The translations under genes were made by a program, and so were the position numbers. The notes below the pieces were generated by a model. It saw nothing but the letters and a program-made list of their open reading frames with translations. It did no database searches and was not told the DNA's origin. Below are positions 43,401-46,400 of a stretch of 64,000 bases of DNA, in pieces; positions within the stretch are counted from its first letter, which is position 1, and each line of letters opens with the position of its first letter. The stretch is from a virus. The DNA lies in the IMG/VR virus record IMGVR_UViG_3300044710_000107, positions 1 through 64,000 of that record; one strand, given 5' to 3'.

Positions 43401-46400
43401 TTGGCGAACTCGCGCATGCGGCCAACGCGCGCCGCCAGTTCGCGGTCGGATAGTGGACGGCGCCCCGCAGCAATCTCGGTCGGGTCCCGCAATCCCCACG
43501 CCCGCGCCGCTTCCAGGCTCTCGCCGACGGTCTGCGGCCCGACCGGCTCCATGCCGCTGCCTGGCTCGCGGGCGCCGACCTCGCCGCTCTGCACGCGCCC
43601 AAACACGTCCTCGGCGGTCTGGAATCCGCGCCGCGCCAGCATGTTCCGCAACCGCGCCAGGAACGCTCGCAACTTGGCGATCACGCGCGCCATGAGGCTG
43701 CCCTTGGGCGGCGCCGGCCCGGTCAGGTGCACGCCGGTCTCGTCGGCGATCGCTTCCTCAAGCTGTCCGACGTGGCCGAGTTCGGGATACCGCGCGCGGA
43801 CGCCGTGCTTCTCGATCCAGTTGCCGCGCTCGGCCGCCGCCTCCAGCGTCGACCACTCCTTCCCGGTGAACACGCCCAGCCGCTTCAGCGCGTGCAGCAC
43901 CTCGTGGCTCATGTTCTGCGCGAACCGGCCGGGCTCGATCGCCGCCCGGATCAGCCGGCCGATCGCGTAGCCGAACACCTGCTCGGTGTGGCCGTCGGGA
44001 AACTTTACGGTGAAAGCGTGGTGCGCGGCATCGTACGCCTCGATTTGAATGTGGCCGCCGGTCATGGCGCGCGCCGCGTCGATCACCGCCTGGATGGCGT
44101 GCGGGTGCGGGTAGTCGGGATGGCCCGGCATCTGACCGCGCTGGAACGCGATGCGCGGATTGTTGGGATCGAACGTGCCGACATTGCCCGTCGCCGACTT
44201 CACCTGCACGTCGTCGAACGGTATCCAGACGGTGTGCGTCTGACCGCCGAGTTTGCCCCCGGTGTCTTTGATTCCATCGTAACCATGCGCCCGAAGCGTC
44301 TTCGTCACCCAATCAGGGATGCTCGTCCAGGCGTGGCTAGATTTGCCGGTCTCGATGTCGTCCAGCAATTCGCGCACCCATTCACGCGGGTCGCGCCGGT
44401 TCTTGTCCCAGATGTCGCCGCCGCCGTTGCGCGGGTCGAACCGCTGCCGGCGGGATGCCTTGTCGAGCGCGGCAACGAGCGGCTGCGGGATGGCCGATGT
44501 GTCGAGCGGGCGCTGGATGGAGAGGAAGGTCGGAAACACCGCCGGCATCGTCGCGTGCGGATCGTGCATCTCGACCGGGACATCGACGCCAGCCGCGCGC
44601 AGCACGTCGTGGAACTTTTCCTCATCGTTGTAGAGGACGCCGCCATTCAGCCAACCCTCGATGAGAGCCTTGAAGGCGTTGCCGTGGGCGCGCTTTAGTT
44701 CGTAATCGTAGTTGCCGATCCCGGTCAGGCGCCCTTCCGGCGCCATAACAATGTTTCGATCGTCATCGTACGTGACGCGCGGGGCGAGGCTGGATATCTT
44801 CGCCTTCTGCTCTGGCGACATGGACCACCAGGCGCGATCCAGCGGAACGGCGGCCCGCGCGCCCTTCGGCTTGATGCGGAACCACGTCTCGTAACTGGCA
44901 TCTTCATTCGTCAGGCTCGTGTCGGACTTGCTGGCCGCGTAACTGCTGGCGATCGCCGGGTCGTCGGTGAAGAACGCCATCGGGCCAGACGTGGCGCGCG
45001 CGCTGCGGAACCGCCCACCGACGCGGTCCGGGCGCTGCGTGCCGTGATAGACGACCAGCGGGCGGCCGGTTTCGTCCACCACGGCGCTGTTACGGAACCA
45101 GCTTTTGAATTCCGGCGTCTCGACCTGAGCGGCTGGGGCGACACCGCGTCGCCCGAACAGCGGCTTCTGCTCCGGCGGCTTCGGCGCGAACAGACCCTCG
45201 TTTGCCGGCTTCTGCTCGCCGGTCGGCAGCAACGCCCCGCGGCCAACCTGATCGCGCGCAGCCTGCGCCTGGACGGCAGACGGCTCCATGCCGGGCATGA
45301 CGGCTTGGCGCTCGTCGGTGCGGAGGGCGGGCTCGGGCGCGGGGCGCTGGGCTGGCGCGCGCGGGGCTTCGCCGAAGAGAGGCGCGCCGCTCGCCGGAGG
45401 AAGCGGCGGCTTGCGCTCGGCTAGTCCTCGAACCCCAACTTCCTGCGTTCCGCCAGGGGCATGCGGTGGCGCGCCCTCAGATAGCCCCGGACCTCCGCCA
45501 CCGCGTTCTTGACCTGCGGATCGTCTTGTTCGGGAATCGTCAGCAGATCGCGCAAGGATTCTCGCAATTCCTTCGTCTGCGCTAGCGGCGTCGGGGTGTC
45601 GATGATCCCCCACATTGTAACCTCCACGGACGGCGGCTTGAGCGACGCGGTCGGCAATTGCCGCAACATGGGGCGGCCGCGACGCAACTGCAACATAATC
45701 GATGAAGCCGGCGCCGTGCAGGGCGCGGTTGATGGTGTCCCACAAAACCGGCTCAAGTTCTTTATTTGTGGCCTCGCCGCGCCGGATCGCCAGGAGAAGC
45801 CCGTCCGAGACGGTTCCCTTCGCCCTGATGCCGCCCAGCATGATCGCGTTCGCGATGGTGCTCTGCGTGTGGGCTCGGCGATCGACTGCGGGGCCTAGGG
45901 ACGCGGCATAAAGCGAACCGTCGTGGCCCTGTGCGACGATGCCACTGACGCCGGACAACGACAATTGATACACATCATTCGAGGAAAGCGAACTATTGTT
46001 CGGGTGGTTGTGTTGGAAGACGAGCGCCCGCGACGGGTCGGTCGCAATGTCACCGAACCCGGGCGGAAAATCGACGCTCCTTGCGCTCCCCGTGGTATGC
46101 GCCATGACGACCGCATCAAGGTGCGGGTCGTACGCCGTCAGATATTCATGGCCGGTCTCGCGACCGCGTTCCAGCACGTACCGACCGGCTAGGACCGCGG
46201 GTGACACGCCAGGATTTTGCTCCGCGAACCGGGCGAAGTCCTCCGCTTCGCTGCCGATGACGACGCCTTGTTCGGCCAGCCTGCCGGTCGCCTTCGGCAT
46301 TGTGGCCGGCGTTTCGAGGAAGAGCCGTCCTTGGCGTTCATCCTTGATCGGCGGCTGTGCGAGGCGCCCGACGGCCTCAAGCATGCCGCCCTGGACAGCA

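Follow-up and report, generated by a model that had tools for sequence, protein, structure and literature searches.

A probable overprinted companion gene of a divergent RadC-like JAB domain within the gene for a giant phage polyvalent protein

The Rz/Rz1 spanins of phage lambda are encoded by two genes on one strand, the smaller of which is nested completely within the larger, in its +1 frame and beneath a change-tolerant stretch of the outer protein. The two products act together, and both separate and embedded layouts exist. The comS gene of Bacillus subtilis occupies a distinct frame within srfAB, a giant gene for a modular multi-domain enzyme, with which it is co-transcribed; the standard test of such a gene is the introduction of stop mutations into the small frame that are silent in the host frame (passages on comS in PMC12915044). 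MuF polymorphic toxins of temperate phages are accompanied by a small downstream ORF of the immunity type (Jamet et al. 2017, main text of PMC5576092). Polyvalent proteins are giant multi-domain proteins in which ART-PolyVal is found together with a RadC-type JAB domain (text of Iyer et al. 2017, PMC5512222), and the same text notes continuing dispute over what RadC-like JAB domains do biochemically.

We analysed a window of 64,000 nucleotides from a complete phage genome, which is 88,245 bp long and has direct terminal repeats. The window contains the ORF of a giant polyvalent protein and, in the +1 frame directly after its JAB domain, a small ORF that is probably a gene in its own right. The features of the locus are as follows.

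40466..49831, minus strand: ORF of the giant polyvalent protein, 3,121 aa, with a Pfam ART-PolyVal match
45635..46189, minus strand: divergent RadC-like JAB/JAMM domain in the host frame (HMM match)
45621..45625, minus strand: GGAGG Shine-Dalgarno-like site, 5 nt upstream of the ATG
45421..45615, minus strand: overprinted small gene, 64 codons and TAG, in the +1 frame of the giant ORF
45421..45616, minus strand: host-frame linker of 65 codons, rich in Gly, Arg, Ala and Pro, dual-coded with the small gene (GC3 0.42)
45119..45445, minus strand: conserved host-frame junction segment directly after the stop of the small gene (tblastn)
44912..45076, minus strand: best stretch of ART-PolyVal, aa 1586-1640, the next domain downstream (Pfam match)

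The nesting of the small gene, its +1 frame and the tolerance of the overlying stretch to change recall Rz/Rz1, and the family to which it belongs also occurs in both separate and embedded layouts. Unlike in Rz/Rz1, the sequences are unrelated to spanins, no lysis function is involved and the inner product is not a lipoprotein. The outer gene is a 9.4-kb gene for a multi-enzyme virion protein, the inner gene appears to be older, independently widespread and captured, and the embedded form would arise when a domain cassette is built into the polyprotein. The position of a small gene in a distinct frame of a giant modular gene is shared with comS; ComS, however, regulates an unrelated pathway (competence) and not the adjoining domain, and comS belongs to a single lineage and not to a recurring cassette. 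The free-standing relatives of the locus resemble the MuF polymorphic toxins, as they consist of MuF (PF04233) and a C-terminal JAB domain with the small gene directly behind. In contrast, no MuF domain was detected in the giant protein of the window (PF04233, E<=0.01), the small gene is overprinted, and toxin and immunity roles are putative here. The main text of PMC5576092 mentions neither JAB nor RadC and does not describe an overprinted layout. In the text of PMC5512222, the words "overlapping" and "frameshift" occur 0 times. We found no publication on the overprinted layout; JAB-type C-terminal domains or their downstream ORFs may be listed in the additional files of PMC5576092 or in the architecture lists that accompany PMC5512222 on an external site.

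The giant protein has the features of the polyvalent proteins of Iyer et al. (2017): it is 3,121 residues long, phage-borne, and matches ART-PolyVal with E=2e-13 and 51.8 bits against a Pfam cut-off of 31.2. Its JAB domain carries the JAMM motif E...HxH...S..D (wording of the metal-site motif from the corresponding passage of PMC300881), and residues E15, H60, H62, S69 and D72 were invariant in 13 of 13 aligned homologues. The best solved relative in a PDB profile search was the RadC homologue 2qlc (E=0.023). Pfam PF04002 gave no match to the JAB domain of the window at E<=1, and two relatives, L021 (17.2 bits) and L028 (16.4 bits), remained below its gathering cut-off of 22.1 bits. A Pfam ABATE match (E=0.0037, 18.3 bits) was rejected, being below the cut-off of 24.4. 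The junction segment that follows the stop of the small gene (host-frame residues 279-394 of a 467-aa query) was 50-64% identical to sequences in L001, L009, L010 and L014 by tblastn; it precedes other domains in relatives, and in L009 and L010 it precedes the JAB domain. A ParB-like part of the giant protein, to which no HMM gave that name, aligned to L010 and L026.

On the minus strand, GGAGG (45625-45621) is followed by TTACA, the ATG (45615-45613) and, at the end of the ORF, the stop codon TAG (45423-45421). The small ORF is thus an embedded overlapping gene candidate, wholly within 40466-49831 on the same strand at an offset of +1. The ATG follows 19 nt after the end of the JAB HMM match at 45635. 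The first-pass annotation had described exactly this arrangement, with GGAGG-TTACA-ATG, 64 codons and TAG in another frame of the same strand, placed directly after the JAB module; its coordinates proved exact, as did its counts of codons ending in G or C in the alternative frame (53 of 64) and in A or T in the host frame (38 of 65). The host-frame GC3 of 0.42 over the overlap is the minimum among all 65-codon segments of the giant ORF, which average 0.81 (sd 0.10) and reach 0.42 or less in a fraction of 0.0003. Between approximately 45720 and 45360, the GC pattern over the three codon positions becomes that of coding in the +1 frame. The duplex of the GGAGG site with the anti-Shine-Dalgarno sequence has an energy of -10.0 kcal/mol, a strength that only 0.5% of positions reach in the 10 kb around it. 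Another in-frame ATG lies upstream at 45696, but it is the ATG at 45615 that aligns with the N-terminus of the family. A scan of 45300-46100 for promoters and terminators found none, including no sigma-70-like promoter. The +1 frame of the giant gene contains ten ATG-started ORFs of >=50 aa. The existence of the ORF alone is unremarkable; the switch in composition and the conservation in relatives exceed chance.

The product belongs to a large family of free-standing proteins of approximately 55 residues, with an N-terminal motif similar to M-x-x-I-D-P-P-S-P-F-A-P and two putative helix-like stretches around L-P-x-D-D-P. A profile built from nine such ORFs retrieved 564 representatives at E<=1e-3, 63 of them at E<=1e-10, among 1.84 billion proteins. 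The 150 matches listed comprise 121 of at most 90 aa, 28 of 91-220 aa and one spurious repeat protein, and most of them align from their own residue 1, as the ATG at 45615 does with residue 1 of the family. One protein, P0008, differs from the product of the window at 4 of 64 residues. The family pI is mixed (4.1-11.3, median 5.6). Tandem copies of the small protein occur in P0003, P0005 and P0063, and in L029-L031 and L036 the small gene has no JAB neighbour. On the whole phage genome, the overprinted ORF was the sole match of the family profile (E=6e-22). A non-circular test was provided by an HMM made from 11 free-standing homologues only, without the candidate or any overprinted member. 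In each of seven overprinted loci, searched as 899 six-frame pieces, the overprinted ORF was the sole match of this HMM, at E from 2.4e-15 to 3.6e-7. The ORF of the window was the weakest of the seven (E=3.6e-7, 26 bits), and the sole match in a 10-kb stretch.

At the thresholds used, Pfam, PHROGs, NCBIfam and PADLOC contained no family for the small protein. PDB profile matches were limited to designed helical proteins (best E=1.7e-4) and were read as reflecting composition and not homology. No match was found for the 64-aa peptide by tblastn in GenBank phages and PLSDB plasmids, for 45000-46400 by blastn in phages, or for the window peptide in the first metagenome scan. Word-indexed searches that used the JAB segment or the alignment of the small family returned nothing, which owing to the method is weak evidence. 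In the order around Kaistia, the family is present in 3 of 301 genomes, too sparsely for linkage statistics.

Sixteen distinct lineages with the overprinted layout were collected. The same nesting is seen in a polyvalent ORF of conjugative type (L045), in which an apparent DNA methylase part was named by eye. The small ORF was intact in all 16 lineages. In every lineage, the relative frame is +1 and a start codon, ATG in 13 and TTG in three, stands at the N-terminus of the family. The host frame is open in 16/16 overprinted lineages, compared with 3/18 free-standing genes read in the same relative frame (Fisher p=4.5e-7). Stop-codon load, considered as a cause of the constant +1 frame, was rejected, as the two alternative frames of the 18 free-standing genes contain on average 2.17 and 2.33 stops. 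When the alternative ORF of the window was resampled synonymously, the host frame stayed open in only 16% of trials; in seven lineages tested the values were 5-32% each, with a product of 1.6e-6, although the overprinted lineages share ancestry and such products overstate their independence. Pairwise comparisons yielded either 99.6-100% identity or protein identity of <=58%. Among six lineages, the amino-acid identity of the alternative frame (30-58%) was as high as that of the JAB domain (25-50%). Compared with other lineages, the window reached Smith-Waterman (SW) scores of 67-98 in the alternative frame and 36-47 in the host frame, the latter at the level of noise (shuffled 35.7+-8.4). The conserved alternative frame and the open host frame of all 16 lineages show that both frames are maintained by selection in the relatives. 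In five of the first seven lineages, alternative-frame stops lie 0-9 codons upstream of the start, which favours initiation over frameshifting. The strength of the Shine-Dalgarno site in the seven lineages tested is exceptional in the window (top 0.5%) and high in L015 (top 4%); in the others it is unremarkable at 14-47%.

The linkage to the JAB domain was determined in 31 contigs that two scans had found through the JAB domain alone. In 31/31 of them a member of the small family follows the JAB domain, as an ORF of <150 aa right after the effector domain, which in the window is overprinted and not separate. The HMM detected 26 of these 31 small genes; a leave-out HMM recovered those of L021 (E=2e-10), L020 (6e-7), L059 (2e-4) and L062 (3e-3), and L061 duplicates the sequence of L062 but is truncated where its contig ends. 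Two layouts occur: either a separate gene stands behind a MuF-JAB protein, or the small ORF is in the +1 frame of a polyvalent ORF that continues past it. MuF (PF04233) is present in five of six free-standing JAB proteins. A rare in-frame fusion of MuF, JAB and, at the C-terminus, the small protein is known from one lineage (P0090, P0156, P0157) and is represented once among the 150 matches listed. JAB domain and small protein co-diverge (Mantel r=0.58, 0/5000 permutations), a correlation that reflects co-inheritance only and is not evidence of binding. On the best JAB tree, the overprinted layout requires >=2 changes, the starred branches being compatible with one origin; the JAB domain of the window is placed on a long unresolved branch.

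The composition switch by itself would look alike if a compensating pair of assembly or sequencing frameshifts had displaced an in-frame segment of the giant protein. However, 15 further lineages, sampled elsewhere, have this +1 layout too, and stops bound the alternative frame at either end. Moreover, the sample from which the phage probably came yielded an independently assembled Logan contig, at a depth of 20.5, that is identical over 44800-46400, and the frames are therefore not an artefact of one assembler; we give such an error practically no probability. Sequencing runs listed for this DNA comprised two of DNA and none of RNA; the second run covers only short pieces outside the ORF and gave no variant within it. 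It is scarcely credible that a captured cassette left the ORF as a decaying relic, or that it arose by chance in a GC-rich genome, neither expressed nor selected. Alternative-frame ORFs are common, with 141 ORFs of >=150 aa in the window in addition to the ten shorter-limit ORFs in the +1 frame of the giant gene, but chance or decay would not be expected to leave an intact, start-bearing and family-matching ORF in 16/16 lineages in which the JAB domain is only 25-50% identical, or to retain the alternative-frame pattern of codon-position GC. In a five-lineage clade, the terminal branches of 0.5-1.95 changes per site are much too long for an unselected frame to have stayed open and similar. If ribosomes underwent a programmed +1 frameshift where the JAB domain ends, this would turn the ORF into an extension, and produce a truncated protein that runs from the giant N-terminus through the JAB domain into the small protein. 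The fusion lineage, which shows that a JAB-small polypeptide is viable, the weak Shine-Dalgarno sites of most lineages and the invariable +1 frame agree with this explanation. We nevertheless regard it as very improbable because of the start codon at the family N-terminus in all 16 lineages, the initiation of free-standing relatives at the same residue, the strong site in the window and the stops shortly ahead of the start in five of the first seven lineages, which in L015 adjoin the start and leave no room for a shift site. An informal look revealed no common slippery motif.

The most satisfactory explanation as a whole, in which we place good confidence, is a real overprinted gene that belongs to a widespread family of JAB companions, originated in a cassette, and encodes a probable partner or restrainer of the JAB domain. 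The first-pass annotation had already proposed a separate gene kept on an out-of-frame linker and tied to the JAB domain, and both proposals are upheld by the conserved family, its frame and start codons, and its position after the JAB domain in all 31 contigs. Its suggestion that effector-plus-inhibitor cassettes were fused into the polyprotein stood in part. An origin from a domain with a small gene is supported by the free-standing MuF-JAB genes followed by the same small gene, whereas a strict separation of effector and inhibitor is argued against by the in-frame fusion of MuF, JAB and small protein. The small protein is probably a physical partner of the JAB domain of some kind; binding is inferred from gene linkage and the one fusion lineage.

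The role of such a partner is less clear. By analogy with MuF toxins, inhibition of the JAB domain in the producing cell is the most likely single role, and we propose it tentatively. An inhibitor that is left behind during effector injection does not fit well with the in-frame fusion (P0156, P0157), and the small genes without a JAB neighbour count against a strict immunity reading. It is possible, if somewhat unlikely, that the protein assists the JAB domain without inhibiting it, as a subunit, cofactor, folding or packaging helper, or substrate-recognition piece. A working subunit would be expected to tolerate fusion to the JAB domain, as in P0090, P0156 and P0157; the constant linkage, the co-divergence and the mixed pI, unlike that of a uniformly acidic mimic, are likewise in keeping with it. 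However, in the main text of PMC5576092 a MuF protein ending in an effector, with a small ORF downstream, is the layout of toxin and immunity genes, the orphan and tandem copies resemble orphan immunity genes, and fusion should be common if the small protein were needed in cis.

Based on the layouts of the family, a course of events can be proposed for the overprinted gene and its putatively inhibitory product. A single clade of divergent RadC-like JAB domains has this family as its constant genetic companion. Where the JAB protein is a simple phage MuF-JAB protein, the small gene follows the stop codon directly. Once the JAB module had become part of a polyvalent protein, the stop would have been lost and the giant frame continued as a low-complexity linker. 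Beneath this linker the small gene persists in the +1 frame, where ribosomes probably initiate internally at its own start codon, aided in this phage by the strong GGAGG. The product would bind the preceding JAB domain and restrain it in the producing cell, similar to the small immunity ORFs behind MuF toxins. We speculate, with considerable doubt, that polyvalent proteins are in general composed of cassettes of enzyme domains and partner genes, with each partner kept in the +1 frame under the following linker. Such hidden cognate regulators, probably inhibitors, might silence the effectors in the producing cell and be left behind or released on injection; an ORF at 46405-46662, after the ParB-like module, could be a second instance.

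To our knowledge, a gene that lies within a long ORF of the same strand is not reported by gene callers. Consequently, annotations of phages and plasmids would systematically lack a conserved family in its overprinted form. The two-frame layout is shared by many distant phages and mobile elements, and routine annotation misses a gene there. Edits to a "linker" in such genes may strike a second gene, which calls for caution in engineering. The JAB clade gains a candidate obligatory small partner for expression, pull-down and co-crystallisation. For the assembly of polyvalent proteins, the locus suggests that whole two-gene cassettes may be captured, with the second gene remaining alive under a linker that needs only to stay open.

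The 64-codon ORF inside the giant polyvalent gene had been proposed in the first-pass annotation to be a gene overprinted on a linker. Comparison of sequences confirms it as a real, conserved and unannotated gene of this kind, since its overprinted homologues share the +1 layout and the start, and both frames are kept.

49831 to 40466, minus strand: giant ORF, 3,121 aa.
45615 (ATG) to 45421 (TAG), minus strand: small gene, 64 codons, in the +1 frame of the giant ORF (offset one base downstream).

The phage genome containing the window is complete (88,245 bp, with terminal repeats), and positions 44800-46400 are identical in a Logan contig assembled independently from the probable source sample. 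The giant gene has tail-fibre and virion genes nearby, and a GIY-YIG-type homing endonuclease (52229-53164, minus strand; phrog_314, E=1.5e-26) is located among the virion genes upstream of it. ART-PolyVal is the only Pfam domain named in the giant protein (aa 1586-1640, E=2e-13), which fits the concept of polyvalent proteins set out in PMC5512222. The small gene follows the JAB domain, and its ATG is preceded by GGAGG 5 nt upstream. The codon counts that had drawn attention to the overlap hold, with 53 of 64 small-gene codons ending in G/C and 38 of 65 host-frame (giant-ORF) codons ending in A/T. The GC3 of the host frame across the overlap, 0.42, is the minimum among all 65-codon windows of the giant gene (mean 0.81), and from ~45720 to ~45360 the GC pattern over the three codon positions is displaced by one base. 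An in-frame ATG further upstream, at 45696 (segment 45616-45696, minus strand, +1 frame), would give a 91-aa product. The 27 extra residues have no counterpart in the small-protein family, and therefore the ATG at 45615 was taken as the start. Elsewhere in the giant protein, a low-complexity stretch rich in Pro and Ala (48150-48480, minus strand) also has an unusual GC distribution over its codons, 0.8-0.94 at positions 1 and 2 and 0.58-0.68 at position 3; a second frame there was rejected, because amino-acid composition accounts for these values.

IMG/VR was scanned for relatives of the host-frame protein and of the JAB domain. In the overprinted relatives, a +1-frame ORF lies directly behind a homologous JAB domain, and the protein encoded by this ORF aligns with the window peptide. 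At other loci, a stop ends the JAB-bearing ORF, and the small protein is encoded by a separate gene with a start abutting or overlapping that stop; five of six such JAB proteins contain a phage MuF domain. The wider JAB-first scan added 20 loci: nine overprinted (all +1), eight with a separate small gene, and three (L059, L061, L062) with a diverged small ORF scored only by a lenient leave-out HMM. Both JAB-first scans together placed a family member behind the JAB domain in 31 of 31 contigs. A further overprinted case, L045, lies in a bacterial genome within a conjugative-type polyvalent ORF. The E, HxH, S and D residues of the JAB domain are kept in 13 of 13 homologues; the domain reaches RadC only weakly (2qlc, E=0.023), and the Pfam RadC match in its relatives is below threshold. 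Free-standing MuF-JAB and small-gene pairs occur in prophage-like regions of Hyphomicrobiales genomes (L028 and L053, Kaistia soli; L032, a Kaistia MAG), where downstream head-tail genes were named by eye; these loci suggest which hosts this group of phages may infect.

The small protein belongs to a real family, as judged from profile searches. Among 1.84 billion proteins, a profile of nine members matched 564 representatives (E<=1e-3), of which 63 reach E<=1e-10. Among the 150 matches listed, 121 are at most 90 aa long, most matching from residue 1, and 28 have 91-220 aa and comprise one JAB fragment as well as proteins with tandem copies or N-terminal extensions; the remaining match was rejected as a spurious repeat protein. 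P0008, encoded on a contig of 1,191 nt, and the window product differ at 4 of 64 residues. An HMM built from 11 free-standing genes only had the overprinted ORF as its sole match in each of seven overprinted loci (E 2.4e-15 to 3.6e-7, among 899 six-frame pieces). No fitting family was found in Pfam, PHROGs, NCBIfam, PADLOC or PDB. P0003, P0005 and P0063 carry the small domain in two or three tandem copies, and in P0022, P0040 and P0048 it lies behind a shared N-terminal extension of ~80-110 residues. In the MuF-JAB proteins P0156 (815 aa) and P0157 (545 aa), the small domain is fused in frame at the C-terminus, and P0156 has an intein-type Pfam match (PF14890) within its MuF part.

The alternative-frame product is as conserved as the JAB domain (30-58% and 25-50% identity, respectively, among six overprinted lineages). 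Smith-Waterman scores of the window against other lineages were 67-98 in the alternative frame (shuffles 23.7+-4.7) and 36-47 in the host frame (shuffles 35.7+-8.4). Each of the 16 distinct overprinted lineages uses the +1 frame and has a start codon at the family N-terminus (ATG in 13, TTG in three), and the proposed check of stop codons found the alternative frame intact and the host frame open in every one. Of 18 free-standing genes, only 3 have the equivalent frame open (mean 2.2 stops; Fisher p=4.5e-7 versus 16/16), and the proportion of trials with an open host frame after synonymous resampling of the alternative ORF was 5-32% per lineage (seven tested), figures that overstate independence because the lineages are related. 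Five lineages (L009, L010, L015, L024, L026), but not the window, share a host-frame motif like D-R-Y-T-V-A-V-R-P-E-E-R-V-A-G-L-P, over which the alternative frame reads I-D-x-P-S-P-F-A-P-R-S-E-L-L-A-F-L. The host-frame motif is probably a by-product of the alternative frame, since the alternative-frame motif is present in free-standing genes, although it could have its own function, for example as a cleavage site.

The small gene is probably expressed by internal initiation, which is favoured over a +1 frameshift by the conserved start codon and by alternative-frame stops 0-9 codons upstream of the start in five of the first seven lineages; L015 has its stop immediately next to the ATG. The Shine-Dalgarno duplex is strong in the window (-10.0 kcal/mol, top 0.5%), fair in L015 (top 4%) and unremarkable in the other five tested lineages (14-47%). 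No promoter-like site was found near the small gene.

Two other parts of the giant gene recur in relatives. Directly behind the small-gene stop, a host-frame junction segment (~45119-45445, minus strand; L-F-G ... R-T-D-x-R-Q-A-V-M-P-G-M-E-P-S ... Q-A-Q-A-A-R-D) is conserved in L001, L009, L010 and L014 at 50-64% identity. Its position ahead of the JAB module in L009 and L010 suggests a portable module boundary or a processing site. A second nested +1 ORF (46405-46662, minus strand) resembles +1-frame sequence of L010 and L026, located behind a ParB-like module, in its last ~30 residues (L-S-E-A-E-H-V-Q-A-Y-R-Q-A-L...) and its stop. The two frames are about equally conserved there among three sequences (Smith-Waterman 59-72 alternative, 52-69 host, shuffles ~20-24), so either could be the selected one.

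The nested architecture resembles that of Rz1 in Rz (PMC5295617) and comS in srfAB (PMC12915044), and the gene content resembles a MuF toxin cassette. No paper on genes nested within polyvalent proteins emerged from the literature searches, and the words "overlapping" and "frameshift" do not occur in the text of PMC5512222.

The small protein is tied to this JAB clade by gene linkage, and the co-divergence of the two proteins (r=0.58, 0/5000 permutations) shows co-inheritance only. The small gene had been proposed to be the inhibitor of a captured effector cassette. A strict immunity function has evidence against it: in one lineage (P0090, P0156, P0157) the small domain is part of the MuF-JAB reading frame, Mesorhizobium loci and L036 have the small gene but no JAB, and the pI of the family is mixed. 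The captured-cassette origin is supported by the free-standing relatives, which are laid out like MuF polymorphic toxins, described in PMC5576092 as a MuF protein with a C-terminal effector followed by a small immunity-type ORF. Because of this matching layout, we infer that the single most likely role of the small protein would be that of an inhibitor.
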